Below are positions 1 to 64,000 of a stretch of 64,000 nt of DNA, piece after piece (the stretch's first letter is position 1; every line of letters begins with the position of its first letter). Both the position numbers and the translations under genes were made by a program. The stretch comes from Verrucomicrobiota bacterium (GTDB taxonomy: Bacteria; Verrucomicrobiota; Lentisphaeria; JABSQK01; JAJFLO01). The stretch covers positions 24,782-88,781 of the forward strand of contig JAJFLP010000108.1 of the NCBI GenBank assembly GCA_021772635.1, written 5' to 3'. The notes under the pieces were generated by a model. That model saw only the letters and a program-made list of their open reading frames with translations, was not told the origin of the DNA and made no database searches.

Positions 1-700
1 CCGCCGCGAGTCATGGCGTCACAAGCACCGGCGGCTGAGGACATCCGCCCTCCAGATTACACGGGCGAAGCGCATGTTGGAGTTCACGCTTTAGCGTGCA
101 AGTCAGTATTGCTGCAAGCTAAAGCTTGAACTCCAAAATACCGCCGAACCCAAGTTTCCTTTTGTATTAACCGACTCAGCGGAGCGCGTCGGTCGACGCT
201 CCTCTGAAACTTCGTCATTTTGACACACTAAAGTGTGAACTCCAACGGGTGCTACTTGCATACGAAAAGATAGGTGTTGTTAAGGTCCCCTGTTGGAGTT
301 CATGCTCTTGACACGACATAGCCATTGGCGACGGCGGTTCAGCGTGCCTTAACCTGAGTTTCCTATTATCTTAACCGGGGCGGTACGGCCCGGACGATTG
401 CTCCCTTGAAACGTGGGCATTTTGACACACTGAAGCGTGAACTCCAACGGCCCCGAACACATACCAATCCTTTAACTAAGTGATATTGGTATTGATAGAC
501 CCGGAATTATCGGGCAGTCGCCGCTTTCTTCAAACTTCGCGTATTTCTGATATTATACTGTTAGGTTTTTAACCCAAGATTCCGGATAATCACGCGTTGA
601 TCGCAGTAGCGTTTGAGCTCGCGCTTTGACCCGACGCGGCCCGACCGGCGACGGCAGGTCAGCGTGTTCTAATGAGCTAATAGTTTCTCCCATACTTGAT
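1..700. repeat. Composite array of hairpin repeats (family A). Inverted copies of GTTGGAGTTCACGCTTTAGCGTG / CACGCTAAAGCGTGAACTCCAAC are joined to a CAAGGGAGCAATCGTCCGGGCCGTACCG..CCGGTTAA module.
   Basis: Seen directly. GTTGGAGTTCAC at 76-98 pairs with GCTAAAGCTTGAACTCCAA at 118-136. Further arms lie at 222-247, 290-315 and 432-450. The stretch 340-400 is the reverse complement of 5776-5830 and of 6045-6100. A degenerate copy runs 640-700. Confidence 0.8.
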
Positions 701-794
701 CGGCGTAGCGAACGGCCACCGATGTTCGGGGCACTGAAATTTCGCTGTCCGAATCGATATCCATGTACGCTGCTCCCCGGTCACTCGGTAGGAC

Positions 795-1934
795 TCAAGC
801 GGGGGCTCCCTTCAAGGACCTCGATGCAATCGGTATCGATCCGAGTTCGCCCAGTCGCGGGTTCGCATCCAGGTCTAACTGACTCGTGGAGTCGTTGCAT
901 AAATAATAATATGCAAGTCCGCCTATCATCGCGGCATTGTCAGTGCAGTACTCTAGCGGCGCAATTGCGAGATTTATATCACGCGCGTCGACGGCAGCGC
1001 GGATTTTGGTCCGGAGTCGACTATTACAAGCTACCCCCCCGCAAAGTACTAAAGTTCTCGGTTGGTAATCGTCTATGGCCCAAACGGTTTTTCGCGTTAA
1101 CGCGTCGACGACTGCCTCCTGGTAACTTGCGACCGTATCTAAAAGTATCGGGTCGAGATTTGCAAGATTTTCTTTTACTGCAGAATCAGGCGTTACGAGC
1201 GAGTCGATTCCCGCCAATCCCTGTTTCTTCGCGTGATACAGTAGCGCGGTTTTAACACCGCTGAAGCTGAAGTTTAGTCGGTTTTCGGCACTTACTCGAG
1301 TTCCCGAAGTCCCCAGTAAACCGCGCGGGAATTGGAACTTCTCGGGATCACCGAAGGTCGCCATTTTATCAATCAATGGACCACCCGGATAACTTAAATT
1401 GAGAATTCTAGCGCCTTTGTCAAAGGCCTCGCCAGCGGCATCATCCAGTGTTCTACCGACAATGCGACAATCCCCGTCCAGCTGAATTAGAACTAATGCT
1501 GTGTGTCCGCCTGAAACCACGAGTGCGAGCACGGGAAAATTGCGTGGGTCGGCTATGAGTTCCTGTCTGTCTATGAACGCACCGAATATATGAGCCAGGA
1601 AGTGGTTAATACCGATAACAGGCCGGTCAATAGCCGCGGCCAACCCTTTTGCGTACGATATCCCGACCAGGAGGGCAGGAAGTAATCCGGGGGAGTGAGT
1701 CACTGCGACGGCATCGATATCTTTAAGTCCGACCTTCGCGGCGGCGAGGGCATAATCCACTGCTGGACCGATTGATCTCAGGTGTTCGCGTGCCGCTAAC
1801 TCCGGAATGACTCCTCCGTAGAGAGCGTGCTTATCAATTTGCGAGGTAATGACATTCGAGAGAATATCGTGGCCGTCGACTGCCACCGCGACCGCGGTTT
1901 CGTCGCAACTCGTTTCAATACCGAGAATGTGCAT
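795..1934 (-). CDS. tsaD: tRNA N6-adenosine threonylcarbamoyltransferase TsaD (Kae1/Gcp family)
   Basis: N-terminus MHILGIETSCDETAVAV, with HSPGLLPALLVG and GGVACN motifs typical of TsaD. At 379 aa it is somewhat longer than usual at the C-terminus. Confidence 0.9.
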   Translation of the reverse strand: MHILGIETSCDETAVAVAVDGHDILSNVITSQIDKHALYGGVIPELAAREHLRSIGPAVDYALAAAKVGLKDIDAVAVTHSPGLLPALLVGISYAKGLAAAIDRPVIGINHFLAHIFGAFIDRQELIADPRNFPVLALVVSGGHTALVLIQLDGDCRIVGRTLDDAAGEAFDKGARILNLSYPGGPLIDKMATFGDPEKFQFPRGLLGTSGTRVSAENRLNFSFSGVKTALLYHAKKQGLAGIDSLVTPDSAVKENLANLDPILLDTVASYQEAVVDALTRKTVWAIDDYQPRTLVLCGGVACNSRLRTKIRAAVDARDINLAIAPLEYCTDNAAMIGGLAYYYLCNDSTSQLDLDANPRLGELGSIPIASRSLKGAPA

Positions 1935-2133
1935 ATACTGATCGTCTTCGAGTTTTTTAACGCCATTAAGGCACGCTATAGTTTTGCCGGACAGAAAAAC
2001 GGCGGAAGTTCATGCTGTAGTCCACCACCACGGCGAGACATGTTGCCGGTTAAAAAGTATGATCGGAAAATTCGACTGGCGTGGCGGTCGAAATCTGCAG
2101 CCTAGTACCATGTAATGGTGCTAGACTGAGGGG

Positions 2134-3474
2134 TTACTCCTCGCTTTCGTTACGCTCTAAGGTGTCGTCGGTCGGGAGTTCCGCGGACTTGAGAATCTTA
2201 GCGAAGTCGACCTCTCTTCCTTTCGACATCACCGTGAGTCCTTTCAATACCTCTATTGCACGGCTTAGTTGTTTGTCTTCTATATCCTCGACCTTCAGCT
2301 CCTGGTCGTCAATACTTCCGGCGATTCTCGAACGCTGCAGCGCGAGTTTGTGCGCGTCTTCATCGCTAATATCTACGACAAAATCCGGCTCAATACCGTT
2401 GTCGTGAATTACTCGTCGACTTGGCGTATAGTACTTCGCCGTCGTTAAACGGACCGCGCTACCATCATCAACCTCGATTATACTTTGGACCGAGCCTTTC
2501 CCGAAACTTTTCTCTCCAACAATCAGCGCGCGCCCATAGTCTTGGAGACACCCCGCGACAATCTCCGCGGCGCTGGCGCTCCCTTCGTTTATCAAGACTG
2601 CAATAGGCCAGTCAAGATACTTGTCTTCGGACGACGACCGATATTCCTGCTTACGGCTTTCGGTTCGACCCTCCGTGGACACGATTAGCTGGCGCTTTGG
2701 AATAAACAGGGAACTAACGTCAACGGCAGACGTTAATAAGCCACCTGGGTTGTTACGCAGATCAAGGACAAGCGCCTTTATCTCTTTCCCTTTAAATTTC
2801 TGAAGTTCCTGGCCAAGAGAATCGGCAGATTTTTCGTTAAATTGCGTTATCCGGATATATCCAATTTCAGGCTCTACTATCTTCGTATCCTTTATCGTGG
2901 CAATCTCGATAATTGCGCGTTCGATAGTCAGCGTCTTAGTTTCCTTGGTGGATGGTCGGAAGACCGTTATTTCCACCACAGTCCCGAGGTCTCCCTTTAT
3001 TAAGTTCACTGCCTGATCCAAAGTTAAGTCGGCGGTCTCTTTATCATTGACTTTAATTATCTTATCGCCGGCAAGAATTCCCGCCTTCATCCCCGGTGTA
3101 TTATCCATCGGTGCAACAACGGTCAACACACCATCTTTCATCGATATAACGACGCCGATACCACCGAACTCACCTTCTGTTTCCTCTCGCATTTTCCCAT
3201 ATTCTTCCGGGGTAATAAACGAACTGAAGCGATCCAGCGAAGTCAACATTCCCTGCATAGCGCCGTATATGAGGTCCTGATAATCAATTTTTGATTCGTC
3301 GACGTAGTTCTTGCGAATAAGTTTCAACACATTCGCGAACTGCCTGATCGTCTGATATCCCTTTTCCTGTCCGGTTTCCTTTTCTATTGCGGAGTGGACG
3401 TTAAATCCGATAATCAGATTGCACGTCAAGGCGACGATTATACAATAGAAAATAATATTCAGTCGTTTCGGCAT
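2134..3474 (-). CDS. ctpA: C-terminal processing (tail-specific) peptidase, S41 family, with a PDZ domain
   Basis: N-terminal signal or anchor, a PDZ region (GDKIIKVND) and the S41 core LVLDLRNNPGG...SASAAEI. Confidence 0.85.
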   Translation of the reverse strand: MPKRLNIIFYCIIVALTCNLIIGFNVHSAIEKETGQEKGYQTIRQFANVLKLIRKNYVDESKIDYQDLIYGAMQGMLTSLDRFSSFITPEEYGKMREETEGEFGGIGVVISMKDGVLTVVAPMDNTPGMKAGILAGDKIIKVNDKETADLTLDQAVNLIKGDLGTVVEITVFRPSTKETKTLTIERAIIEIATIKDTKIVEPEIGYIRITQFNEKSADSLGQELQKFKGKEIKALVLDLRNNPGGLLTSAVDVSSLFIPKRQLIVSTEGRTESRKQEYRSSSEDKYLDWPIAVLINEGSASAAEIVAGCLQDYGRALIVGEKSFGKGSVQSIIEVDDGSAVRLTTAKYYTPSRRVIHDNGIEPDFVVDISDEDAHKLALQRSRIAGSIDDQELKVEDIEDKQLSRAIEVLKGLTVMSKGREVDFAKILKSAELPTDDTLERNESEE

Positions 3475-3630
3475 AATCAGCTATTAATCGATTAAAGTTG
3501 GATACTTGTAAATCGGTTCATCGACCACCAATCTACTACGCGAGTAATTATTCGTAAACTGACGGCTGAAAGTATTTCTGCCACATTGGCTGGCGGGGCT
3601 TATTGGGATTTTGACGGCGATCATACGTTA

Positions 3631-3685
3631 ATCCCACCAGTGGGTTTAATTCCCGACGCTTGGCCCGAGGCAGTTGATTTAACAC
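3631..3685. repeat. Repeat module U: CCACCAGTGGGTTTAATTCCCGAC...GGCCCGAGGCAGTTGATTTAA
   Basis: The same bipartite motif recurs at 30563-30668 and 57739-57853. The left half alone recurs at 5965-5980. All four copies sit in 5' or divergent intergenic regions. Confidence 0.6.
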
Positions 3686-3983: not shown

Positions 3984-5432
3984 ATGAAAACCGAAGATCG
4001 TCGAGACGATAACATTAACCATACCATTTCCGGAACAGTTCAAGGGTTCCTCGCCGGCTTGATCAGCCTTCCGACTGGCGTAGTAACTGCCGGATTCCTT
4101 TCGCGGAATCTTGGTCCGGAAAATTACGGGCTATTAACCGTCGCCGCGTCGATAGTGTTAACGGTAGAAGTCATTGTCACGGTCGGGTTTTGCCGGACCG
4201 CTGTAAAGTTCGTCTCTGAATCGGACGATTGGGAAAAGTCGGCATCCGCGATTTTGCATACACAATTCATCGTGAGCTTGGTAGCAGCTGCTGGTTTGTT
4301 CGTCGCGGCACCTTTCTTCGCGTCAATGCTGAACGCTGAAGCGCTAACCTTCTATCTTCGCCTTTTTTCATTAGATATTCCCTTTTTCGCGCTTAGCAAC
4401 GTTCATCAATCTATCCTTGTCGGGCGCGGACGTTACGGGAATCGCGCTTTCCTAATCGGCGGTTACTGGATTATGCGCATGGTTTTCGTAATCGTCCTTG
4501 TCGGCGCCGGACTCTCTGTAAGCGGTGCAATAATTGCGGGGATTTCTGCATCGGCTACGGTGTTAATTGGAGCTAGATGTCTTATTCAATCACCATTTCT
4601 TCGCCGTCAGCCCGCGTTTCCAGTTGCGAGAATATGGAATTACGCGATTCCGCTGTTCGTATACATCATTGGAATTAGTTTGTTCAAGGCGTTGGATTTA
4701 TTAGTCGTAAAAGGTCTCGTAGATTCGCCGGCAGTTGCCGGATATTACGGTGCTGCGCGGAATTTAACGATCGTTCCGATACTATTTGCATCGGCCCTCT
4801 CACCGTTGGTGCTAGCAAAGTTAACGGAATTCCTACGCTCCGACGAGATCGACGCCGCACGGGATTTGACCAAAAGCGCGATGCGTTCGGTCGTGTGCCT
4901 GCTACCATTCGCTGGTATGACTGCAGGAGCGGCCGATGAGATCGTGGTTGCTATATATGGCGGTGATTTCCGGCCGGCCGGCGGGCTGCTCAGCCTGCTT
5001 ATATTCGCTTCTCTCGGGCAGGTGATGATCTCCTTGGTCGTCGGAGTCCTGGTCGCGCTCGAAAGACCCAATTTAACTGCAGTTTTCACCCTGCCATTGG
5101 TGCCCTTAGCATTCGTTTTACACTGGCTCATAGTGCCATCCTACGGTGCCGTCGGTGCTGCCTGGATTACGACTTTTCTGACCACGTTATCTGCTATATT
5201 GCTTATAGTCGCAGTACACAGAATTTTCCAGAGTTTTCCTCCGCTGTGGCCCGGGTTGCGAAGTGTTGCGATCTGCATTGGCGCTTACTTTCTCGCGTCA
5301 GGTTGGTCGACTCCCGGTTTTTTTGTATTTTTCAAAATTACGCTGATTTCCGGTTTAATTCTGTTGACGTATATTTTAGTTGAAGAAGTCAAGATAAACG
5401 ATCTTGCTTCAATAAAGGCATTCGGTAGTTAA
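3984..5432 (+). CDS. Polytopic membrane protein of the MOP/Wzx-like polysaccharide flippase superfamily
   Basis: A 482-aa ORF with about 12-14 hydrophobic segments and no soluble domain, matching the general Wzx/MATE-like topology. The family call rests on composition and architecture only. Confidence 0.5.
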   Translation: MKTEDRRDDNINHTISGTVQGFLAGLISLPTGVVTAGFLSRNLGPENYGLLTVAASIVLTVEVIVTVGFCRTAVKFVSESDDWEKSASAILHTQFIVSLVAAAGLFVAAPFFASMLNAEALTFYLRLFSLDIPFFALSNVHQSILVGRGRYGNRAFLIGGYWIMRMVFVIVLVGAGLSVSGAIIAGISASATVLIGARCLIQSPFLRRQPAFPVARIWNYAIPLFVYIIGISLFKALDLLVVKGLVDSPAVAGYYGAARNLTIVPILFASALSPLVLAKLTEFLRSDEIDAARDLTKSAMRSVVCLLPFAGMTAGAADEIVVAIYGGDFRPAGGLLSLLIFASLGQVMISLVVGVLVALERPNLTAVFTLPLVPLAFVLHWLIVPSYGAVGAAWITTFLTTLSAILLIVAVHRIFQSFPPLWPGLRSVAICIGAYFLASGWSTPGFFVFFKITLISGLILLTYILVEEVKINDLASIKAFGS

Positions 5433-5439
5433 TATTAAT

Positions 5440-6215
5440 CTTGTGCGGCAGAGCACGTCCATAACCGCTCGTTCGTAGCGGCGTAGTGCGTAATATTACC
5501 TCGCGGTATACTGGAGACTTGCGCCGGCGGCAGCCCCCCCTGGCGCACGGATTATCGGTCGTTGTACTGCCCGCGATCTCTCTCCGCATTCTCGGAGTCC
5601 GCTCGTCCGGACCGCATCAGCGAGAGTCTCGGACATTCTGAATCGGGATTAAGAAACAAGCAGTAAAATTTTGGGTCCGTATGAACGGACTCCGCTCGCG
5701 CGGAGCTGACTTTGAATTCATTACTTAAGGGATATCGAATGTGTCATGCAGAAAATAAAATATGGAACAGGAAGGGAGCAACCGTCCGGGCCGTACCGGG
5801 CCGGTTAATAAAATAGGAAACTTGGGTTCGTCGGCATTTTGGAGTTAAAGCTTTAGTTTGCAGTAATACCGACTTACAAGCTGAAGCTTGAACTCCAAAG
5901 GCCGCACAGTCGAGCCGATATTGAATGTGATAAGCAGCCTCAAAATCTTTTAAGTTTCAGAGGAGCCCACCAGTGGGTTTCTTTTTTGACCCACTTATTA
6001 CAATACGAAACGGGCCCACAATATTGAAGATTTCCGCCAAGTTTCAAGGGAGCAATCGTCCGGGCCGTACCGCCCCGGTTAATATAAAAGGAAACTTTAG
6101 ATACGACACGCTAAAGCGCGAACTCCAACAGCGATCACTGCAACACGAATTCGCTGGTATGCTGGAGTGCCCGTTGGAGTTCACACTTTAGTGTGTCAAA
6201 ATGACGAAGTTTCAA
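5440..6215. repeat. Composite repeat array built from modules S, T-reverse and A, plus two copies of the CAAGGGAGCAATCGTCCGGGCCGTACCG module
   Basis: The run 5575-5665 matches 53350-53430. The run 5680-5745 is the reverse complement of 46340-46400. Runs 5776-5830 and 6045-6100 are direct copies of each other. Hairpins GTTGGAGTT..AACTCCAA lie at 5835-5895, 6113-6135 and 6170-6195. Confidence 0.8.
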
Positions 6216-7658
6216 GGGAGTCCTGTGGATTTATATACCCGAATAAACCGATTACGCTTAGACCGTCTGCCAACTGATAACCGAGTATGGATTATCTTGG
6301 TGAGAGCGACTTTCAGTTTTCGGAATCTGGGGCGGTCGGTCTGGGCGTTCGTCCTCCCTGTAATGTTGATTTCACCTGTAACGACCGTCGGACAGGTATT
6401 GGACGACATCGATTTCTCCTTCTCTATCGAGACTCGAGCTCACGTCCGAGACAGCGAGGGCAACGATTTTCCTATCAATTTTCCGACTAACGCCGCATTA
6501 AAAACGGTTGACCCGGGAACTAACCTGGAGATTTCGACAGTTACACTTCGGTCGGATATTGACTACAAGGATCTCCTTCGACTTCGACTAAGAGTTCAGT
6601 TAATAGATTTATATGACCGCAATTCAACATCGGACGACTCGAAGATTGACGTCGACGAATATTCTCTACGCATTGGCACTGAGGTACCTGCTGGCGAAAC
6701 ACCTGTCAACGACGCGCGAAATATATACCTGAAATTGGGGAAATTCGGTAAGTTCGAGCGGCAACGGGATCGTCATCTCGAAAGCTATGGGCTGGTTTCG
6801 ACTGCGTTTAATCGCTTCGAAGACCTGGGACTCGAGATCGGATTCGATATATCACCGCATGTCTATGTGAAGGGCTCATTGACATCGGGCAATCCACTTT
6901 TTATCCGCGACCCCAACGCCCTTGCTGGCGACAATGGAACTTCCGATTTTCTTCGAAAGCGCGATCCCAAGTTGAATAATGGCGTTGTTATACTGTATGA
7001 CGCGGAAGTTGAGAATCTCCAGTTCGATCATGAGTTCGCAGAGATCGGGCTCGGCTTGGGCGTTCGGTTCGTCAACCCGGAGGCAACGCGTTATCTCGAC
7101 TTTCTACTGTTCGCATATGAACGAGACTTGAAACGAGAGGCGAAATTATTTGGGACTTTGTACGGAGGAGATCTCGACGTCCTCGATGCCCCGGGGCCGA
7201 ATACCTTTCAGGATGGAGAGGTCGTATTGAACGGCTTGACCGGGGATTACAAGCGTGAGTATGGTGCTAGTTTATGGATATATCTCGACGATTTCGCTGT
7301 GTTCGGGCAGTTCGTCCAACAGGATGTCGGCGGGCTGGATCGCGAAGGCTGGGAAGTTGAAGTCTCCCGTAAGTATTTTATGCCGGAGACGCTATCTATC
7401 AGAGGAGTTCCAATTCTTATATCTATTACACCGGTAATTCGTTACTCTATAATTGATCCCGACTTCACGGGTCCAGGGGACTTCCCGGCACCGAGCACTT
7501 TCTGGGAATGGGAGAAGGTTGATATCGGGGTGAAATTCGGAATAATGCGGGGGCTGGATGTCACGGTCGAGTATGCGTTCAATGAATTCGTGCGTAGCGG
7601 TCGAGATGAGGAGAATAATGAATGGTTAACTACCTTGCGGTGGCGGTACGGGTTCTAG
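6201..7658 (+). CDS. Putative outer-membrane beta-barrel protein (porin-like). The start codon is uncertain.
   Basis: The C-terminus ends ...LRWRYGF, a terminal aromatic typical of OMP barrels, with alternating hydrophilic and hydrophobic strands. The first ATG at 6201 lies inside a repeat copy (ATGACGAAGTTTCAAGGGAG), so the real start is probably downstream, near 6290-6340, ahead of a signal-like VWAFVLPVMLISPVTTVGQ. Confidence 0.55.
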   Translation: MTKFQGSPVDLYTRINRLRLDRLPTDNRVWIILVRATFSFRNLGRSVWAFVLPVMLISPVTTVGQVLDDIDFSFSIETRAHVRDSEGNDFPINFPTNAALKTVDPGTNLEISTVTLRSDIDYKDLLRLRLRVQLIDLYDRNSTSDDSKIDVDEYSLRIGTEVPAGETPVNDARNIYLKLGKFGKFERQRDRHLESYGLVSTAFNRFEDLGLEIGFDISPHVYVKGSLTSGNPLFIRDPNALAGDNGTSDFLRKRDPKLNNGVVILYDAEVENLQFDHEFAEIGLGLGVRFVNPEATRYLDFLLFAYERDLKREAKLFGTLYGGDLDVLDAPGPNTFQDGEVVLNGLTGDYKREYGASLWIYLDDFAVFGQFVQQDVGGLDREGWEVEVSRKYFMPETLSIRGVPILISITPVIRYSIIDPDFTGPGDFPAPSTFWEWEKVDIGVKFGIMRGLDVTVEYAFNEFVRSGRDEENNEWLTTLRWRYGF

Positions 7659-9935: not shown

Positions 9936-10054
9936 AATTTCTTCCGTTAGAGTAGTTTTAATATTTTCGGACTTTTTTGCGCGATTAATCTATACCGCAA
10001 GCGGTACAATTTTCCGACGACTTTGAAATGATTGCGTAAGAGACTCCGAGCGAT

Positions 10055-10085
10055 TTTTCGTCCCGCATGCGGTATGAAGACGCTT
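10055..10085. repeat. Single reverse-orientation copy of hairpin module T (CGTCTTCATaCCGCATGCGGGACGAAAAAT)
   Basis: Contains the palindrome CCGCATGCGG. It matches 46338-46365, 63895-63925 and 54681-54700, and sits in the gltB-gltD spacer. Confidence 0.6.
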
Positions 10086-10120
10086 AGGCTAAATCACTCA
10101 AGAACTGGACTGTTTAAAGT

Positions 10121-13100: not shown

Positions 13101-14716
13101 TTTGTTACCTGCGCAAACAGCTGTTTGAAGTAGTCGTAAATCAGGCGAGGTCGCTTAGATAGAATCGCCGACGGCGTGTCGTCACCCATAGACCCTGTCG
13201 GTTCTTTTCCGGCAACAGCCATCGGGCCGATAATTATTTCCAAGTCTTCTATACTGTAACCAAAGGCTTGCTGTCTGGTTAATAATGTCGACGTATCTGA
13301 TTTGGTACTGGAATCCGTGGCCGGAAGGTCGTCGAATGATTTTAGATTGTTTTTAAGCCAGGTGCGATAGGGCTGTCGGCCTGCCATTCCATCCTTTATC
13401 TCTTCATCGTCGATAATCCGTCCGGCGTCGGTATCGACCAGAAACATGCGGCCGGGTTCAAGGCGGCCCTTATACGACACATTTTCCGGCGGTATATCTA
13501 GGACACCAGTTTCAGATGCCATTACGACGAGGCCGTCTTTGGTAACCGTATACCTTGAGGGACGCAGCCCGTTTCGATCCAGTACCGCTCCAATACAGCG
13601 CCCATCAGTGAAGGGGATAGATGCCGGCCCGTCCCAAGGTTCCATCAGGCAGGAGTGATACTCGTAGAATGCCTTCTTCGCGTCAGACATAGTTTCGTGA
13701 TTCTGCCATGCTTCAGGAATACACATCATAATCGAATGCGGTAAAGACCGACCGGTATGGTAAAGCAACTCGATCGCGTTATCCAGAATTGCCGAATCAC
13801 TTCCACCTGGTGTCGCGATCGGAAATAACTTCGCGATATCGTCTCCGAATAACGGTGACTCGAATAAATACTGGCGTGCGTTCATCCAGTTGATATTCCC
13901 ACGAAGCGTATTTATTTCACCGTTATGACAAAGAAAACGGAAGGGCTGGGCTAGGTCCCACGTTGGGAATGTGTTCGTGCTGTAACGTTGATGGACGAGT
14001 GCCAAACCGCTCACTAAATCCGGATCAGCAAGGTCGATAAAATATGACTCAAACTGTGTTGCTAAGAGCATCCCTTTGTATACCAAGGTGTTGCAGGATA
14101 GACTCGAAATATAAAACGACGATTTTTCAGTCAGATCCGATTCACGAACCTCACGCTCCAGAACCTTTCTGATCATGTAGAGTTTACACTCAAATTCTGC
14201 CGCGTCCTTTAAGTTCGGACCACGGCCAACGAAAATCTGCGCAACGCACGGTTCTACGTCCCTGGCAATTTCGCCTATATCTCGATTGTCGGTTGGCACT
14301 TCGCGCCATCCCAATACAGTTTGGCCCTCGGCTTTAACAACGTCTTCAAACAACGATATACACCGTTGACGTTGTCCCTTATCCTGCGGAAGAAAGACAA
14401 TACCCGTGCCGTAGTCGTGTTCATCGCCGATATCAATACCATTTGCGTCACACATTTTCCGAAGAAATTTATGTGGTATCTGCATCAATAAACCCGCGCC
14501 GTCACCCGTCTTTTCGTCACATCCACAAGCACCGCGATGAGTGAGATTCACGAGTATCTCAAGCGCGTTTTTTACGAGCTTATGAGACTTTCGACCTTGG
14601 AGGTCGCATATGAAACCAGCGCCACATGCGTCGTGCTCAAACTGCGCGTCGTATAGGCCGGACCGAGTTGGCCTGCCATCGGGATATCGAGTGGAAAATT
14701 CATCGAAATTCTTCAT
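10121..14716 (-). CDS. gltB: Glutamate synthase large subunit
   Basis: 1531 aa. The N-terminal amidotransferase has the catalytic Cys in [11 protein letters not shown], followed by FMN and Fe-S central domains and a GXGXG C-terminal domain. Collinear with GltB. Confidence 0.95.
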
Positions 14717-15391
14717 AAGCAGAAATTATCTCTTGATTAAATATGTCAGTTAGCTGTAGTGCCGTCGGAATCCGAGCGAATGTACCCAGGACTTTATCAA
14801 GTCAATGACACTCGAAAAATAATCGACCGCTTGCAGTCTAGATCGTACAACGTATAGCAGTAACGATTGTACTGCCGAATGATGACAACAGCAAATTTGG
14901 AACGAACCGTTAAAAGCACCAAGATCACAAATTCCAGGGTGATCTATAGTTTGCATTTCAGTGGAAAGCCGAATACGAATACCGTATTTTTTTGAATTTT
15001 CAAATGAAATTACCGCTATCGATATGCTTTTGTCTATTACTCCCAACTCACGGAACATTATATGTTTCAGCGCGACGCCCAGTCCGTAATGACAGACTAT
15101 GGAGTCCATTGATTCAATTCACGGAATCCTAAGACGAAAGCACGGCGTTGCGAGGCCGAAGAACCGCAGTTTAAGAATTGAAACTGGACTGCCAGGAGGA
15201 GGTTGGTCGCCAGGAACTAAAGAAAAGAGACCGGGGCACTACCGTTGAAGGGGAAGATGGCTGGAACAAGATTAAGAGAACTTTGTTATTCGTAATCTTA
15301 ATCGTGTTCATACCCGCAATCGATTAAAACTATGATTAAGAATACGTAGCAAGGGCAACTGTTTTCGGAGGCGATGTTTTCTGAGGTTAGG

Positions 15392-15835
15392 TCAGTGTAA
15401 CAGTATCTTTTTTATCGTATTCTTCTGATTGTCCGATAGGGAGGTGTAAACCTTCCGGTACTTCGACATATTCGCACCGGTGTTAAGCTGATTAATTTCT
15501 CTCTCTACGTCCCTTGAGTCATACCCTAACGTTCGCGAACCCCGTGCTACAGAACCTACCAAATCAATCAGAGTACTGTTCTCTTCGTGGAAGTAATCCA
15601 CGTTGTCGACGTCACCATATACCTTTGAATACCACGTCCCGGCCATGATCAAGAATGCTGCCGTGACCGTGAAAAGAGACTTTCGGACGGTCGATTTGTC
15701 CGTACGGAATTTTACCGCTAACTTTCCTGTAATAGTGCGCGGCCGCTGTCGCTGTCGACGTCGCTGTCGCGTCGGTTTTCCCTCCGACTTTGACGACTTC
15801 GTGAAGAATTTCGCTTCATTTTCTTCTCTGGTCAT
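15392..15835 (-). CDS. Hypothetical small protein with an arginine-rich N-terminus (RQRRRQRQRPR) and one transmembrane segment
   Basis: A 147-aa ORF in a lower-GC 1.3-kb gap upstream of gltB. No homology recognised. It could be spurious. Confidence 0.3.
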   Translation of the reverse strand: MTREENEAKFFTKSSKSEGKPTRQRRRQRQRPRTITGKLAVKFRTDKSTVRKSLFTVTAAFLIMAGTWYSKVYGDVDNVDYFHEENSTLIDLVGSVARGSRTLGYDSRDVEREINQLNTGANMSKYRKVYTSLSDNQKNTIKKILLH

Positions 15836-16040
15836 ACGTCGGCTCCTCTAATCGTTATTGAACAAAGACTAAAATACGTTATTTCTATGGCAAAAGCAAG
15901 ATCGGCAAGGTTCCAAGAATGGAGGTTATCAGTTTTTTGAGATACCTCTTGTATGAGTTATGAGAATTCGACGAGACAGCGCTTGCGTATGATTATCTCT
16001 TTAAGTGTAACTCGGCAACCTGGCAGCGGGGAGATATTCG

Positions 16041-30562: not shown

Positions 30563-30668
30563 TAATCCCAACAGTAGGTTCAATTCCCGGTTCTGCTGTC
30601 CAGCACGAACGTAGTAAAGCTTTAAGAGTCTTTCATCCCGTGGGCTTGCCCCGAGGCAGTTGATTCAA
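30563..30668. repeat. Repeat module U copy (variant AATCCCAACAGTAGGTTCAATTCCCGG ... CCCGAGGCAGTTGATTCAAT) in the bioH/cupin divergent region
   Basis: Shares both halves with 3631-3685 and 57739-57853. Confidence 0.55.
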
Positions 30669-31149: not shown

Positions 31150-31240
31150 ATGGTCTTCAGGTTTTTGAAATATTGTTCGATATCCCTTAGGTAATGAATT
31201 CAAAGTCGTCAAAAAATTGCAATGCCTGCAGTATGAAATT
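31150..31240. repeat. Composite repeat copy (T-like, the GATATCCCTTAGGTAATGAATTCAAAGTCGTC module, and a degenerate palindrome TTGCAATGCCTGCAGTA)
   Basis: Matches 46340-46400 and 63900-63965. Confidence 0.6.
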
Positions 31241-36984: not shown

Positions 36985-37054
36985 GATTGCGCAACCGAAC
37001 AATCGGTCGTTTCTCAGCACATGACACGAATCACGTAATCCGAATCAAAAAATT

Positions 37055-37487: not shown

Positions 37488-37583
37488 TGTATACCGAAAA
37501 TCATCAGGTTTTCGAAATATCGTTCGAATTCTCTTGCGCGGTTAGTTGAGAGTTATCCAAAAATTGTACTGCATGCAGTATAG
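37488..37583. repeat. Composite repeat copy ending in TTGTACTGCATGCAGTATAG (14-bp palindrome)
   Basis: The palindrome sits at 37567-37580. The upstream part resembles 45079-45126 and 54695-54745. Confidence 0.65.
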
Positions 37584-44808: not shown

Positions 44809-44894
44809 TGCGCTTAACTATATCGAAGACTACAAGACATCCAGTTTCCCGGTCGTGTTGCGACAACCCCAAAATTAATCACGCACCTGATTCC

Positions 44895-45150
44895 GGATGA
44901 TATTTTAACCGGCATTCTGCTGGCGGGCAGTAACGCCGGGTCGAAAACCTAAGGATAATCAGAATAGCTCCCTGTGCTCTTGCGGGACTTGAGGCACCGG
45001 CGAAATTTATTCGGCGATATATACCGAAAGTCATGGAGTTTTCGTCCGGATTACCCGAGACTCTCGCTTTTGCGGAGAAATATCGTTCGGAAATTCTTGG
45101 CTGATAAACTCGAAGCCATCCCGAAATTGTACTGCATGCAGTAAAACTAT
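44895..45150. repeat. Composite repeat array: palindrome Q variant (CCGGCATTCTGCTGGCGGGCAG..), module V (TATACCGAAAGTCATGGAGTTTTCGTCCGGATTAC), module R (ATCGTTCGGAAATTCTTGGCTGATAAACTCGAAGCCATCCC) and the palindrome TTGTACTGCATGCAGTA
   Basis: Q at 44903-44955, V at 45008-45060, R at 45079-45126, P at 45127-45143. Module V matches the reverse complement of 33786-33860. Confidence 0.75.
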
Positions 45151-46320: not shown

Positions 46321-46490
46321 CTTGATGTATACCGAACGTCTTCATCCCGCATGCGGGACGAAATATTGTTTGATATCCCTTAAGTAATGAATTCAAAGTC
46401 GTCTCTCCGTATTCTCGGAGTCCGCTTATGCGGACCGCACGAGCGGAGTCCGTCCATACGGACCAAAAATTGTACTGCTTGCAGTATGTT
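46321..46490. repeat. Composite repeat array: T hairpin (TCCCGCATGCGGGA), the GATATCCCTTAAGTAATGAATTCAAAGTC module, the S double hairpin (TCTCGGAGTCCGCTTATGCGGACCGCACGAGCGGAGTCCGTCCATACGGACC) and the palindrome TTGTACTGCTTGCAGTA
   Basis: Nearly identical to 63881-64000. The S module also occurs at 5582-5640 and 53350-53410. Confidence 0.8.
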
Positions 46491-46815
46491 TTTCGACTGT
46501 ACAGCGGTAGCCCAACGTACACGATACACTACCTGAATAATTCACCAGAATTCTGTTGCGGGCACTTATCTCTGCTCAAATCAGCGACGTTTATCGAAAT
46601 CGGCTGCCAACGTATTTCAATACGTTTTCCACCCGATTTCTTCACTAACTCACTGATATTGAACAAGCTAAGCACTCTCGCGACGAATCGCGTGAATCAA
46701 TCAGGCTAAAGTCCGAACAATCGCTTGTTGCGGGGCCGGATATAACATTAGCCCAGGGCGTGAGGGCAGATGTTATATCTTCAACATTCATCAGTTAATC
46801 GAATTTAATAACCGT

Positions 46816-48469: not shown

Positions 48470-48706
48470 CTGCCCCGATCGCTGTCCGAATCGGGATTAA
48501 GAAACAAGCAGTCCGATTTTCAAACGGCTTGGATGCATTCGCGCAAGGGATTCCGAACGATTTTGCAAAATTCCAAGGCGATCAAGATAAACTGCAAGCA
48601 GTTGAAATTATGAATGATTTAAATCCAACTGCGTATAAGATTTCGAACCATATTTTTTAACCGGCATTCTGCTGGCCAGCAGAACGCCTGGTCGAAAACT
48701 CGAAGG
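48470..48706. repeat. Repeat array: the GAATCGGGATTAAGAAACAAGCAG module, an AACTGCAAGCAGTT palindrome variant and the 30-bp palindrome Q (CCGGCATTCTGCTGGCCAGCAGAACGCCTGG)
   Basis: The run 48485-48508 matches 5641-5665. Palindrome Q at 48655-48706 matches 53492-53545, and 60159-60203 in reverse orientation. Confidence 0.75.
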
Positions 48707-48743
48707 TGTGTCGGTATTGTAATATTACAACGTTAAGGGAATC

Positions 48744-49619: not shown

Positions 49620-49662
49620 AGTAGGATCAACACGAACTCCCGACCCACCTGTGGCGTTGAGA

Positions 49663-49700
49663 CACGAATCACGAAACACGAATCACGAATCACGAAACAC
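49663..49700. promoter_or_regulatory. Tandem heptamer array (CACGAAT/CACGAAA x5), 24-60 bp upstream of the DUF2330-like gene
   Basis: Seen directly: cacgaatcacgaaacacgaatcacgaatcacgaaacac. Confidence 0.5.
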
Positions 49701-51124: not shown

Positions 51125-51235
51125 TATATATTGGGGACCGTTGGAGTTCGCGCTTCAGCGTGGTATTTCTTACCAGGAACTTAAGAACCACGCCCCGCGA
51201 CTGCGTGGGCGCGAACTCCAACATGCGCCTTGAAC
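51125..51235. repeat. Family A hairpin copy (GTTGGAGTTCGCGCTTCAGCGTGG ... CGCGAACTCCAAC)
   Basis: Arms at 51135-51150 and 51211-51226. Confidence 0.65.
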
Positions 51236-53204: not shown

Positions 53205-53545
53205 TTTGCCCGATCTAATTTTGAATCGGGATTTGGAAACAAGAAGCCCCATTCTCGGTTTGGTATCGACGTATAGGCGACTTAAGGTTCTGTCACGTAA
53301 GAGATCCTTAACGATCGAAAACTCCGAGGCGGAATGGATATCGCCCACGATCTCTCCCCGTATTCTCGGAGTCCGCTCGTGCGGACCGCATAAGCGCGAG
53401 TCTCGGACATTCTGAATCGGGATTTGATAACAGGCAGTACAATTCTTGGAAGACTTTTAACTTATCACCTAAAGGTTTCCGAACGGTCTATTTTTAACCG
53501 GCATTCTGCTGGCCAGCAGGACGCTTAATCGAAAACCCAATGAAG
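53205..53545. repeat. Repeat array: the GAATCGGGATTTGGAAACAAGAAG module, the S double hairpin, GAATCGGGATTTGATAACAGGCAG and palindrome Q
   Basis: The run 53225-53250 and the run 53413-53438 match 5641-5665 and 48485-48508. The run 53350-53410 matches 5582-5640. Q lies at 53492-53545. Confidence 0.75.
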
Positions 53546-53808
53546 ATGGGTATGTATATGGGTTCTCCAAGCCCCGAACCTCTGTTTCCGGGAACGGCGT
53601 CACGATCGAATACTCAATAAATCGATCAGTAGAATCCAATGCTTTCCGCGGTGGCGTCGCGCTTTCGAAATTCCCTCCCGCGTTTAAGGTTCTTTTGCAA
53701 AGGACTATCCATTACAAAAAATCGAATTTGATTACCGACTTAGACTCCAAGTGGTCAAAATCCAAGATTTCGCAACTATCGGTATAACTCCTAACGTTCT
53801 TAATCGCG

Positions 53809-54594: not shown

Positions 54595-54680
54595 TGGATT
54601 AGTCACGAGCCTGATCCATGCGTAAGGCGAGCAAGTGATGGAGAATATGGTATTCCTTGGTGTCTACCGAAAGTAATGGT

Positions 54681-54766
54681 CCCACATGCGGGACGAAATA
54701 TCGTTCGGAAATTCTTGGCTGATAAATTCGAAGCTATCCCAAAAATGTACTGCTTGCAGTATAAGA
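54681..54766. repeat. Composite repeat (partial T hairpin, module R and the palindrome ATGTACTGCTTGCAGTAT) between convergent genes
   Basis: Matches 45079-45143 and 60205-60270. Confidence 0.7.
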
Positions 54767-54837: not shown

Positions 54838-57411
54838 TCAACTTCCTTCGCGCGGTCGTCCTTCTCCCGCGGTTCCGTCGCCCGTCTCCGCGGGAGCTTC
54901 TTCGAACATGAACGCCCAGTCCTCGGAAAACGTTGTATCGGATTCCGTTCCCAGACGCTTATAATATGCATCGAGAAGAGTCTGTTGCTCCTGTCGACGA
55001 TATTGCGGCAGCCAGAAACTTTTTATGCTGGTATAGTCCTCTTCCTTGGGAAGCGAGTGTGACGTAATAAAAACGAGAATTGCACCGTTTGAAGTGTCCG
55101 TCGGCGCAGCCAGAGATTTGGATTTCGTCGTTTGCGCGATCGTTTTTATGACTTCTTTGTTTCGACCAGCCGGCCCCTGATTTAAGGAGAACTCTTTCGT
55201 TTCAATGAATTCGTAATCTCCTATGGCTTCCTCGAATGCGACTCCTTCTGCCAACTTGCCACTTATCTTGTCGTACGCGGCGCGGCACCCCGTCCTGGCG
55301 GCGGCAACAGCCCGCTCGTTTAGAAGGTCGGCTCGGGCCTTCTTGGCTTGTCGCGTCAAGACCAGGACGGGGGTGGTTTCTTCATCCGATGCCGCGTCGT
55401 TTGCGACGTTTGTCGCTTCCTGAGTTTCCATAAAACTAGGTAGATATGAATCTCGCGATCCCTGCCAGCAGGCAACGTAGAAATACCGACCAGACTTGAT
55501 TACCTCAGACAATGGATTTTCAATACCGAGTTTACTTGCCTCTTTAGCCAGAGTTCCGGTGACGCCTGGCACGTCGGGAACATTGTATTGGTCCGGCGTG
55601 AAAAATCCGGATGTGTAAGGAATCGTCGGTATCTTGGCGTCCTTATATGATTTGGCAAACGTCGAGAAACCGCCAGCTTTCTGTTTATCTGGAGTTCCGG
55701 ATAGACGCGAATGTACCGCGATCGCGAAGTTTAACGCATCCTCTGATGCGGAGGCTTCTGCGAGATTCTTACGTTCTTGCGCTAGTTTACGAACAATCTC
55801 CACTTTAACATCGGCGAATGCCTGCTCTGAACGCGAATCAATTTTCTCTATGATATGAAACCCGAACTGAGTTTCAACAACGTCGCTTATCTTCCCGTTC
55901 TCTAAACCGAATACAGCATCTTCGAACGTCTTAACCATTCTCCCGCGTCCAAAGTAGCCAAGGTCACCGCCTTTATCCGCATTGCTGTCGTCCTCACTGT
56001 GTAGCCGGGCAAGCTCTTTGAAATTTTTCTTCTCTCGTGCCTCACTCAGGATCTCCTGCAGTTTTTTGCGTTTTTCATTTTTCGATTCTATCGATTCGCC
56101 AGCTTCGGCTTTGATCAAGATATGTCGGGCGTGTACCTCTTCGTTGGAATAGAGCTTAGCTTTGTTCTTTTCGTAATACGCTTTCGCAAGTTCTGTATCA
56201 CGTTCATTGATGAGCAACGTGCGAATACGATGCTTAACGTCGTCGAACGGTATGGTATCTCGTTCGCCGGCTTTTCTGATTATGTGGAACCCCGATTTGC
56301 CTTCAATAACTTCACTGATGCCGCCGTGCTTCAGCTCCATCGCAGCTTTCTCAAATGCATCGCCATAACGAAGTTTCAGTAGCTGCGGAGCCGTAAATCC
56401 TGTGTCACCCCCTTTATTTTTCCCAGATGCATCTTCCGTGAAGGTGTCGGCAAGCTTCTTGAAATCACCGCCATTGCGAACTTCTAATAGTATTTTTTGC
56501 AATTCCCCGCGTCGCGCTTCTTTCTCTTCGTCTGTGGCGCCAGCTTCGATTTTTAAAAGGATATGATTAAGGCGAACTTGTTTGCGGGAATATTTTTCGG
56601 ACTTATTCGCCTCGTAGTACGCCTTCAGTTCTGTTTCAGAAACCAACGGCTCTTCCTCATATTCCGCACTGTCGAAAACGACAACCTGGAATTGGTTCTG
56701 GATTGCGACACGATACTTTTCCTCAACATTCTCGTTGAAATATATTTCGAGCTCTTCCTCGGTTATTTCTATGTCACTGGAATACTTATATGAGGTAAAC
56801 TCGGATACCTGCGCATTACACTTTGTAAAATACTCAAGGTACGCGGCGCGCGCATCGGTTTCTGAAACGGTCACGGTCGCGGTTACCCGCTTTTCGATCC
56901 TTTCAACAATGATATTATCGCGGATAATTTCGTCGAAGTCTTTCGCGGAAAGGTTGTTGACTGACAGGATGGAGTTCTTGAAGTTGTTGAATTTGGCCCG
57001 GTCGAATGCGTTATTTGTCTGGAACAGCGGACGCTTGAGAATATGATCTCTAATTTCGTCCTGGGTCACGGAGTCGCAGCCGAGTACGCGTGCCTGGTGT
57101 ATTGCCCGCATCCTATTTAATACTTCCTGTGCAAGGATTCGAGTGATTCGGTCATTGTTGGAACCAAGGTAGCGCTGGTAATCGACGAAGAATTTAACGC
57201 GGACCGCGGTCAATTGCCGAAAAAAATCAATTCGGTTAATCGGTTTCCCGTACATGGTTCCGATTTTTACGTCGCGACCTGAGCCGCCTTGGAAGCTACC
57301 ACCCCAATCTCCGTATAAAAAGACGAATGGCAGGATGATCGCGCCGCCAATGAAAAAGTAAGTAATTCGTCCGTGTTTCGCACAGAATCTGTTAATACTG
57401 GAGATTATCAT
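54838..57411 (-). CDS. ppiD: PpiD/SurA-like membrane-anchored chaperone with two parvulin-type PPIase domains
   Basis: N-terminal transmembrane anchor. Two rotamase domains (VRLNHILLKIEAG...GFHIIRK and VHARHILIKAEAG...GFHIIEK). 857 aa. Confidence 0.7.
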   Translation of the reverse strand: MIISSINRFCAKHGRITYFFIGGAIILPFVFLYGDWGGSFQGGSGRDVKIGTMYGKPINRIDFFRQLTAVRVKFFVDYQRYLGSNNDRITRILAQEVLNRMRAIHQARVLGCDSVTQDEIRDHILKRPLFQTNNAFDRAKFNNFKNSILSVNNLSAKDFDEIIRDNIIVERIEKRVTATVTVSETDARAAYLEYFTKCNAQVSEFTSYKYSSDIEITEEELEIYFNENVEEKYRVAIQNQFQVVVFDSAEYEEEPLVSETELKAYYEANKSEKYSRKQVRLNHILLKIEAGATDEEKEARRGELQKILLEVRNGGDFKKLADTFTEDASGKNKGGDTGFTAPQLLKLRYGDAFEKAAMELKHGGISEVIEGKSGFHIIRKAGERDTIPFDDVKHRIRTLLINERDTELAKAYYEKNKAKLYSNEEVHARHILIKAEAGESIESKNEKRKKLQEILSEAREKKNFKELARLHSEDDSNADKGGDLGYFGRGRMVKTFEDAVFGLENGKISDVVETQFGFHIIEKIDSRSEQAFADVKVEIVRKLAQERKNLAEASASEDALNFAIAVHSRLSGTPDKQKAGGFSTFAKSYKDAKIPTIPYTSGFFTPDQYNVPDVPGVTGTLAKEASKLGIENPLSEVIKSGRYFYVACWQGSRDSYLPSFMETQEATNVANDAASDEETTPVLVLTRQAKKARADLLNERAVAAARTGCRAAYDKISGKLAEGVAFEEAIGDYEFIETKEFSLNQGPAGRNKEVIKTIAQTTKSKSLAAPTDTSNGAILVFITSHSLPKEEDYTSIKSFWLPQYRRQEQQTLLDAYYKRLGTESDTTFSEDWAFMFEEAPAETGDGTAGEGRPREGS

Positions 57412-57570
57412 GAGTTATAACCAAACTTTTGTTGGATTTGCAGTGGTGTATCTCGAATTTCCAAGGAACAGTCGTTATACTTTAACAGGCTACCCGGAAA
57501 TGGATGGTATCGAGACGTTTCGCTGTCGCGAGCCGCATAAAAAAGGAACCTTTGCAAGCGGTATCTACGG

Positions 57571-60121: not shown

Positions 60122-60158
60122 CACGACATGAGGAGAAATTTATCCCAACAATCGCGGA

Positions 60159-60270
60159 GTTTTCGACTAATCGTTCTGCTGGCCAGCAGAATGCCGGTTA
60201 AAAATGTATCGTTCGGAAATTCTTGGCTGATACCTTCAATGCTACCCCAAAATTGTACTGCTTGCAGTAT
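60159..60270. repeat. Repeat array: palindrome Q in reverse orientation, module R and the palindrome TTGTACTGCTTGCAGTAT, ending 27 bp before fetA
   Basis: Q at 60159-60203, R at 60205-60250, P at 60253-60270. Confidence 0.75.
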
Positions 60271-60296
60271 ATCCCTGAATCATCAGCACGCAATTA

Positions 60297-63880: not shown

Positions 63881-64000
63881 TTAGCACTATAATTTACCGA
63901 ACGTCTTCATCCCGCATGCGGGACGAAATATTTTCGATATCCCTTAGGTAATGAATTCGAAGTCGGCTCTCAGTATTCTCGGAGTCCGCTTATGCGGACC
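63881..64000. repeat. Composite repeat (T hairpin, the GATATCCCTTAGGTAATGAATTCGAAGTC module and the S hairpin), truncated by the window edge
   Basis: Near-identical to 46325-46445. Confidence 0.75.

Follow-up and report, generated by a model that had tools for sequence, protein, structure and literature searches.

Two clusters of miniature palindromic repeats in a Verrucomicrobiota genome and the widespread hairpin module on which they are built

The first kilobases of a 64,000-nt stretch of a Verrucomicrobiota contig (JAJFLP010000108.1), hereafter the window, contain two regions rich in hairpin-forming repeats that enclose a small group of genes. In an initial annotation, these regions were described as a 700-bp array (1-700) and a twin array (5440-6215) that bracket ctpA and the MOP flippase gene in the manner of inverted terminal structures. 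The locus raises two questions: whether the repeats form the ends of a larger unit, and, if they do not, what kind of element they represent.

Both regions are repetitive, but over shorter distances than those first proposed. In the first region, the shared repeat family (modules Y and X, described below) occupies 74-470 in minus orientation (cluster A), and the flanks at 1-73 and 471-700 have no copy elsewhere in the window. In the second, the shared family occupies 5772-6220 in plus orientation (cluster B) and 5440-5568 has no copy elsewhere in the window. The stretch between these two parts, 5569-5745, is also repetitive, but it consists of other repeat families and has no Y/X kinship with the first array. 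The module proposed to occur in opposite orientations, CAAGGGAGC..GTCCGGGCCGTACCG..CGGTTAA, is indeed present at 351-407 (minus) and at 5772-5828 and 6046-6097 (plus), with 88-90% identity. Hairpins are likewise reused by the two regions, with nine GTTGGAGTTCA/TGAACTCCAAC units within 76-448 and 5838-6195. An additional pair of these units is located at 51140-51222, and the window as a whole contains 11 Y units. The sequence TTGGAGTTCA, with one mismatch at most, has 14 matches compared to 4.2 expected (0 of 100 shuffles reached 14), and AAGTTTCAAGGGAG has 6 matches in the window compared to 0.4 expected. Folded as single-stranded DNA, both regions are far more stable than shuffled sequences (z = -5.1 for 1-700 and -4.1 for 5433-6220; -0.5 for a coding control), in agreement with the hairpins first noticed. 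A CRISPR or other tandem array was ruled out: Tandem Repeats Finder (TRF) detected no tandem array in either cluster, the units are in mixed orientation and the linkers recur. The positions of the genes and repeat elements are listed in Table 1. Repeats of this kind break short-read assemblies, and one short-read Logan contig (L136) terminates at the repeat in the ctpA/flippase gap.

Table 1. Genes and repeat elements of the 64-kb window
Feature	Position	Strand	Details
A1, composite element	74..253	-	Y-left 224-246; ATG-bearing linker 213-223; X 147-212; short Y doublet 76-98 + 115-137
A2, composite element	290..470	-	Y-left 426-448; linker 415-425; X with CCGGGCCGTACCG hairpin 351-414; degenerate Y-right 292-306
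tsaD	795..1934	-	Pfam TsaD, E = 2e-82; adjoins ctpA in relatives
ctpA, S41 C-terminal processing peptidase with PDZ domain	2134..3474	-	
Different palindromic repeat, CCCACCAGTGGG and flank	3630..3682	.	In the ctpA/flippase divergent gap; copies at 5963, 30564-30668 and 57735
Polysaccharide-synthesis (MOP-type) flippase gene	3984..5432	+	Pfam Polysacc_synt_3 and Polysacc_synt
Other palindromic repeat families, unrelated to Y/X	5569..5745	.	Copies at 53343-53449 (88%), 46369-46481, 63933-64000, 31176-31207 and 48485-48520
B1	5772..5900	+	X 5772-5828; short Y doublet 5838-5860 + 5877-5899; without Y-left
B2	5950..6135	+	Partial X 5' end 5952-5965; CCCACCAGTGGG hairpin 5966-5980; full X 6039-6097; Y-right 6107-6129; without Y-left
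B3, truncated	6165..6220	+	Y-left 6173-6195; linker with ATG 6201; first 14 nt of X; unique sequence starts at its end
Secreted/outer-membrane protein (OMP) gene	6300..7658	+	From the likely start GTG 6300 or TTG 6297; other starts ATG 6201 (longest ORF) and ATG 6363; no Pfam match
Isolated Y doublet without X	51140..51222	.	380 nt upstream of tRNA-Ala; fold -29.8 kcal/mol

Alignment of the copies yields a palindromic element of approximately 180 nt, in which a Y unit is followed by a core, X, and by an inverted Y unit. The left Y unit has the sequence (C)CGTTGGAGTTCAC(A/G)CTT(T/C)AGTGTG and is followed by the linker TCAAAATG(A/C)C. Module X consists of AAGTTTCARRGGAGC, a G+C-rich hairpin and CGGTTAA.A.AA.AGGAAACTT, and the inverted right Y unit terminates in TGAACTCCAAC. 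A1 and A2 are complete elements, each of which folds as a single long hairpin closed by its Y ends; in A1 this hairpin is closed by GTTGGAGTTCA/TGAACTCCAAC and has a predicted energy of -41.8 kcal/mol (DNA parameters). A2 is a direct repeat of A1 (147-248 compared to 351-450, 76%). The pieces in cluster B match different parts of cluster A: B1 is 88% identical to the reverse complement of 351-407 and of 77-173, B2 is 82% identical (6037-6135 compared to 318-416) and B3 is 96% identical to the reverse complement of 199-249, the left part of A1. Within the 64 kb, module X is found only in clusters A and B, and the two clusters are for this reason each other's closest relatives there. X has no match in 135 other loci; a single match in the JGI metagenome collection (L144), located in an AT-rich carA gene, was attributed to chance. 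X is thus far best described as a putative lineage-specific core of approximately 110 nt between two Y units.

The proposal that the clusters form inverted terminal structures around ctpA and the flippase gene is not supported. Read in this way, tsaD, ctpA and the flippase gene would be the cargo of a segment that has the arrays as its inverted ends, and recombination between the arrays would move or flip the entire block. The two arrays are oppositely oriented and 5.3 kb apart, they alone share X within the 64 kb, and homologous inversion is conceivable in principle between inverted repeats of this length (50-100 nt) and identity (88-96%). They also share an inverted collinear stretch of 218 nt (gapped, 199-416 compared to 6220-6037, 71%). 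This stretch is, however, the sole collinear one, and the clusters are otherwise mosaics rather than mirror copies: the left part of A1 is closest to B3 (199-249 with 6170-6220, 96%), the right part of A1 to the right part of B1 (77-173 with 5802-5898, 88%) and the X module of A2 to those of both B1 and B2 (88-90%), such that the pieces that match best come in a different order in the two arrays. Opposite orientation of two clusters has a prior of 50%, and further repeat clusters lie both inside the bracket (in the ctpA/flippase gap) and across the window, where they occupy approximately 18 intergenic gaps. No transposase, integrase, recombinase or Y1/HUH gene was found in the 64-kb window, and base composition is uniform across it.

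The genes that are enclosed also argue against a mobile block. Although ctpA and the flippase gene are bracketed as first described, tsaD is enclosed as well and had been missed. The named homologues of TsaD are from Lentisphaerae (55-60% identity), which places the source organism in a deep PVC-type lineage. In two relatives (TsaD approximately 60% identical), ctpA and tsaD are adjacent and are followed by an enoyl-CoA hydratase gene, and these loci have no Y units, no arrays and no flippase or OMP gene nearby. The ctpA-tsaD pair is thus core synteny that is kept in relatives lacking the arrays. Synteny of the OMP gene is not conserved at 57% identity and is therefore uninformative on the presence or absence of the block. 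A composite transposon or invertible segment was rejected on the same grounds (clusters that are not collinear, no recombinase and a conserved ctpA-tsaD pair as cargo), and the terminal-structure interpretation is considered very unlikely. On balance, both regions are probably BIME-like pile-ups of miniature palindromic elements, similar to REPINs or to Rickettsia palindromic elements (RPEs), and not the ends of a larger unit.

One consequence of cluster B for gene annotation was correctly anticipated. The initial annotation warned that these repeats can mislead start-site calls, and pointed to ATG 6201 as a repeat-borne and probably false start of the OMP gene. The linker GTGTCAAAATG(A/C)C carries an ATG in all three of its copies (6201-6203, 215-213 and 417-415), and the OMP reading frame opens only at 6192. 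A start at 6201 would add 33 N-terminal residues that have no support from homologues. Because the ATG lies within the repeat linker and this N-terminus is without homologue support, the repeat creates a misleading start, and with it a probably false long ORF. The OMP protein has 1629 homologues (best 57%), in which signal peptides of 20-35 aa directly precede the conserved core; in the 6201 ORF, residue 67 is the first of this core. Translation from GTG 6300 (or TTG 6297) gives MRATFSFRNLGRSVWAFVLPVMLISPVTTVGQ, a canonical signal peptide, and one of these two codons is likely to be the true start. The public annotation (P0001, 431 aa) places the start at ATG 6363, which would leave the signal peptide without its charged N-region and with only half of its hydrophobic core; this call also looks wrong.

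The part of the elements that extends beyond this genome is the Y unit. Y is 23 nt long and consists of an 11-mer, GTTGGAGTTCA, abutting a mini-hairpin with a 5-bp stem and a 4-nt loop (CANNC-TTYA-GNNTG, 14 nt). It has the dimensions of a REP-type stem-loop (an imperfect palindrome of 20-40 nt). The 11-mer is invariant across four phyla, and the stem varies in a compensated manner. Across 178 units taken from other genomes, Watson-Crick pairs fill 348 of the 356 cells at the free stem positions (98%), with 8 stem types represented; under independence, 32% and 59% would be expected at the two positions. G-T pairs make up approximately 1% of pairs in the Y stems, which fits a structure formed at the DNA level or one that is needed on both strands. 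Judged from this comparison of sequences, the Y mini-hairpin is under selection.

Y units are usually paired. An inverted partner is present within 150 nt for 126 of 167 units, with a median spacer of approximately 17 nt, which is the form of a REPIN. For a test of the folding of such doublets, the left and right arms of 79 of them were joined with the spacer removed. Under a model with an outer stem and two mini-hairpins, 96.5% of cells are paired; pairing at the four free positions is seen in 75-79 of the 79 doublets, with changes on both sides in 19-50 sequences each. Under a model with a single continuous hairpin, those same positions are paired in only about 50% of cases, the level of shuffled sequences. 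The two arms have different stems in 62 of 90 doublets. The clean covariation, together with arms that carry different stems, provides a precise handle for finding a protein that reads Y.

Y is not confined to the source genome. A scan with TTGGAGTTCANNCTTNAGNNTG, using one genome per species, identified at least 119 loci. Among the 80 matches listed, approximately 40 are from Planctomycetota, 27 from Verrucomicrobiota, 6 from Acidobacteriota and 4 from Lentisphaerota. Small palindromic repeats are usually genus-specific, and a 23-nt hairpin module that is nearly unchanged over Planctomycetota, Verrucomicrobiota, Lentisphaerota and Acidobacteriota is unusual. Some Y loci are on contigs of 0.4-3.5 Mb, on which the strict Y pattern occurs one or two times per contig among the matches listed. 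This low density, unlike that of REPINs with their hundreds of copies, could signal a conserved host function. Twelve genuine Y units are located on IMG/VR contigs, and annotated plasmids and phages contain no match to the consensus Y doublet. With respect to genomic context, Y loci are mostly intergenic and divergent gaps are not avoided. No association with tRNA genes was found. Clustering of the flanking ORFs returned only large planctomycete paralogue families and no recurrent gene family; Y is not linked to particular genes. Rfam 15 has no family for Y at the gathering threshold or at E <= 10, with only sub-threshold matches to generic microRNA hairpins. Full-text literature searches for the Y motif and for palindromic repeats of the PVC group returned only primers and general REP papers, and GGAGTTCA is absent from the REP tables of Di Nocera 2013 and Quentin 2018. 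The Y core module thus appears to be unusually widespread, cleanly structured and undescribed.

In other genomes, Y doublets are also found in frame within long ORFs, with Pfam domains on both sides. A glycogen debranching enzyme (L064) contains two doublets, at residues 597 and 819. In an HrpB-type helicase (L061), the doublet is between the DEAD and Helicase_C domains. The doublet of a glycine dehydrogenase, GcvP (L109), is in a loop between blocks that are nearly identical to PDB 4LGL, and that of a Hanks-type Ser/Thr kinase (L082) is between DFG and APE, in the activation loop. The right arm of a doublet has a single open frame (xLKxELQ), and the usual translation of the whole doublet is VGV(Q/H)A(L/S)AC...xLKxELQ. 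The presence of VGV(Q/H)A(L/S)AC...LKxELQ peptide inserts in real enzymes is relevant both to annotators and to structure predictors.

These properties bear on what Y might do. One possibility is that Y doublets serve the host as structured RNA, for instance as terminators, as 3' hairpins that stabilise mRNA, as targets of an RNase or as a small RNA, and that the arrays are multiplied regulatory modules. An intrinsic terminator consists of a G+C-rich hairpin followed by a T/U run. No terminator-like site was found in either cluster (the region contains 5 such sites compared to 7.2 expected) and no T-run follows the hairpins, and this function was rejected. More generally, a role in RNA is consistent with the mostly intergenic location, with the low copy number and with a sequence and structure that are kept across phyla, and REPs and Correia elements are established to have secondary roles of this type (PMC3733652). 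It is difficult to reconcile with the in-frame copies in coding regions, the near absence of G-U pairs and the symmetry of the element, which leaves it without a defined strand. Y neither avoids divergent promoter gaps nor goes with a gene family, and even the relaxed Rfam threshold gave no match to a known family. An RNA-level function as the primary explanation is therefore regarded as unlikely.

A second possibility is that Y is the site of a conserved chromosomal DNA-binding protein (involved in nucleoid organisation, parS/matS-like, or binding as at a gyrase site), for which the clusters would be high-affinity landing pads. The invariant 11-mer, the few copies per genome and the lack of gene specificity are all compatible with such a site. 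Binding to duplex DNA, however, does not explain covariation that reflects intrastrand pairing, the spacers between Y half-sites range from 5 to 118 nt, and the copies within genes and on viral contigs resemble insertions. This interpretation is highly improbable.

If Y doublets are insertions, they could be MITEs, that is, deletion derivatives of a DDE-type insertion sequence that have Y as their terminal inverted repeats and are moved by cut-and-paste by the transposase of that IS. The 180-nt elements, with terminal inverted repeats of approximately 23 nt and long-hairpin folds, have the appearance of MITEs, and they are dispersed and clustered between genes. The flanks of clean doublets, however, show no target-site duplication, and no transposase-bearing parent with Y ends was found in the 135 loci. 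DDE terminal repeats have neither a covarying mini-hairpin within each end nor arms that differ in their stems, and the terminal sequence here is invariant over four phyla. An origin as MITEs is accordingly judged doubtful, to about the same degree as an RNA-level function. Integron attC sites or a cassette array were rejected. The core sites of attC are 5'-RYYYAAC ... GTTRRRY-3', with single ORF cassettes between them; the polarity of Y is the opposite (5'-GTTGGAG ... CTCCAAC-3'), the genes between doublets are housekeeping genes (PolX, a GTPase, a T2SS ATPase) and the clusters in the window have no ORFs between repeat copies.

In the favoured model, which treats the clusters as pile-ups of miniature elements, two inverted Y units form a doublet in which, in single-stranded nucleic acid, the outer 9-11 nt pair and each unit retains its mini-hairpin. 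Such doublets may be non-autonomous mobile DNA, as are REPINs and RPEs, that is inserted by a trans-acting enzyme recognising a DNA hairpin and the adjacent sequence tag. The leading candidate for this enzyme is a HUH/Y1 (RAYT-like) transposase acting on single-stranded DNA. Doublets would persist where they are harmless, either between genes or in frame in tolerant protein loops. In the source genome, the spacer between the Y units would have grown into the X module of approximately 110 nt, giving elements of approximately 180 nt, and these may then have piled up, recombined and been truncated in intergenic gaps. One truncated copy puts an in-frame ATG upstream of the next gene. Since no pair of empty and filled sites was found, insertion, like mobility itself and the class of the enzyme, is something that we infer rather than observe.

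RAYT genes were sought in six-frame ORFs with an HUH/Y regular expression, by tblastn with RayT and with an HMM built from 80 RayT homologues. These searches, which covered 0.84 Mb of Y loci and the 64-kb window, found no Y1/HUH or other transposase gene beside Y units. Four RayT-like genes were identified in distant genomes (Planctomycetes, Victivallales and others), and all four are flanked by GGGTCACACCTAC (reverse complement GTAGGTGTGACCC) and not by Y. Planctomycetes, Victivallales and a relative of the source organism all have members of this RayT-like family, which carries a DnaA_C-like tail; the relative has a REPtron with 12 copies of GGGTCACACCTAC around its RayT-like gene. GGGTCACACCTAC did not co-occur with Y in the 0.84 Mb of Y loci. 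These RayT-like genes, with a GGGTCACACCTAC repeat that crosses phyla, show that a repeat recognised by a Y1 enzyme can remain the same in different phyla, which makes the conservation of Y less mysterious. As a tentative extension of the model, Y may be recognised by an undescribed enzyme, common to Acidobacteriota and the PVC superphylum, that reads a hairpin together with a tag; such an enzyme could belong to a new RAYT-like/HUH class or process single-stranded DNA in another way. The Y doublets may then be an ancient, phylum-spanning mobile family that can colonise protein loops. Alternatively, the conservation of Y could be due to a host function of the three-way DNA or RNA junction. Should the protein that reads Y prove to be a new transposase or nuclease of single-stranded DNA, the story of REPs and RAYTs would reach phyla with barely explored mobile elements.

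Among known systems, Y shares several features with REP and REPIN elements, which are mobilised by HUH-Y1 RAYT enzymes (PMC3116915, PMC3733652, PMC6006769). In both cases, a short palindrome has a conserved unpaired tag at one end, the elements are found mainly as inverted doublets, which form a hairpin across a short spacer, and the copies form extragenic clusters, with no target duplication. Occasional in-frame intragenic copies are also shared, REPs of this type being known from Opitutus terrae (PMC3733652). The tag of REPs is GT[AG]G or CGTC at the foot of the hairpin, whereas Y has none of GTAG, GTGG and CGTC at that place and instead has an 11-mer tag, with GTTGGAGTT directly 5' of the stem. 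Y is further unlike REPs and REPINs in that its stem is only 5 bp, its sequence is kept across phyla, its copy number appears low in many genomes and no Y-flanked RAYT gene (REPtron) was found in the loci sampled. Because there is no GT[AG]G tag and the density on large contigs is seemingly low, Y is classified here as REPIN/RPE-like and not as a proven REP. The TIRtrons/TIRYT and the RayT-DnaA_C family, with its GGGGWSAS-type repeat GGGTCACACCTAC, are found in the same phyla as Y, including the relative of the source organism (PMC3733652), but this repeat differs from Y in sequence and Y units do not flank those genes.

RPEs and ERIC/Correia-type repeats (100-200 nt) are comparable to the Y/X elements in that the latter are also self-complementary, at approximately 180 nt, although there is no sequence relationship. 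Correia elements are characterised by TA duplications and IHF sites. RPEs resemble Y in their behaviour: they are inserted in intergenic DNA and also within essential genes, where they keep the frame and become part of the translated protein, much as Y doublets are found in frame in the enzymes described above. To our knowledge, no transposase is known for RPEs. Unlike the Y core, which is found in four phyla, RPEs occur in a single genus.

At the level of whole clusters, 74-470 and 5569-6220 resemble enterobacterial BIMEs, as both are intergenic mosaics of palindromic units that alternate in orientation and are joined by recurring linker motifs. The classes of BIMEs are defined by IHF and gyrase binding. 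The unit sequences differ between the two systems, and the linkers here (X) are approximately 110 nt long and have hairpins of their own. The clusters are an ordinary kind of object, namely miniature palindromic repeats.

Besides the Y units, the intergenic regions of the window hold palindromic repeats of at least five further families (cores TCCCGCATGCGGGA, CTGCTGGCCAGCAG, TACTGCWTGCAGTA, GGAGTCCGC..GCGGAC and CCCACCAGTGGG). They are recombined into mosaics and occupy most of the longer intergenic gaps. A Logan short-read contig of 3223 bp (L136), which carries ctpA and tsaD and matches window positions ~435-3657, ends on one side within the Y unit of element A2 and on the other at the CCCACCAGTGGG palindrome. 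Repeats of these kinds thus break up short-read assemblies. The public call for the OMP gene (P0001, 431 aa) places the start at ATG 6363 rather than at the likelier 6297-6300. Starting there, the protein lacks the positively charged N-region of the signal peptide seen in homologues, along with some of its hydrophobic core.

Two other features of the window were recorded. The long ORF at 54841-57414 (-) contains an internal duplication of ~190 nt. GC skew changes sign and gene orientation switches at ~14000-16000: most genes lie on the minus strand up to ~15.8 kb, and on the plus strand from 16.0 kb onward. The switch may mark a replication landmark or simply reflect gene strand bias.

Direct tandem runs of Y units are found in some Pirellulaceae and Planctomycetaceae MAGs, so local Y amplification is not unique to the lineage of the window. 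In one such run (L095), the Y repeats have a 40-nt period with an identical 17-nt spacer.

Some genes carrying Y doublets have additional inserts. A glycogen-debranching-enzyme gene with two Y doublets (locus L064) also has three in-frame tandem-heptamer inserts, (ATCACGC)3-4, translated as HASRITH; ACGAATC-type repeats in the window bear a loose likeness to this heptamer. Beyond its Y doublet, the GcvP encoded at L109 has three inserts relative to the solved Synechocystis enzyme (PDB 4LGL), and these may be other translated repeat elements.

Coordinates of repeats, inserts and associated genes
Feature	Location	Coordinates	Strand
Palindromic repeat	window	9991-10096
Palindromic repeat	window	31167-31234
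Palindromic repeat	window	37513-37582
Palindromic repeat	window	44873-45146
Palindromic repeat	window	46321-46585
Palindromic repeat	window	48586-48717
Palindromic repeat	window	53343-53557
Palindromic repeat	window	54656-54764
Palindromic repeat	window	60157-60282
Palindromic repeat	window	63892-64000
ACGAATC-type repeat	window	37023-37047
ACGAATC-type repeat	window	49661-49699
Duplication, copy	window	56008-56200
Duplication, copy	window	56449-56638
Tandem Y run	L095	6527-7099
Tandem Y run	L097	4386-4484
Tandem Y run	L121	7173-7228
Debranching-enzyme gene	L064	4699-7923	-
GcvP gene	L109	3627-6971	-
GcvP insert	L109	about residues 430-450
GcvP insert	L109	about residues 527-580
GcvP insert	L109	about residues 947-981
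RayT-like gene locus	L137	17100-19200
RayT-like gene locus	L139	3650-3930
RayT-like gene locus	L141	1570-2710
RayT-like gene locus	L142	3900-5035

The repeat GGGTCACACCTAC (reverse complement GTAGGTGTGACCC) flanks RayT-like genes in all four distant genomes examined (GC 46-67%), Planctomycetes and Victivallales among them. The encoded proteins (~335 aa) have a Y1_Tnp domain and a DnaA_C-like tail. At L137, 12 copies of the repeat are arrayed on both sides of the gene. The RayT-like gene and its flanking repeat thus amount to a cross-phylum conserved REPtron. The repeat agrees with GGGGWSAS, the TIR motif in Di Nocera 2013.
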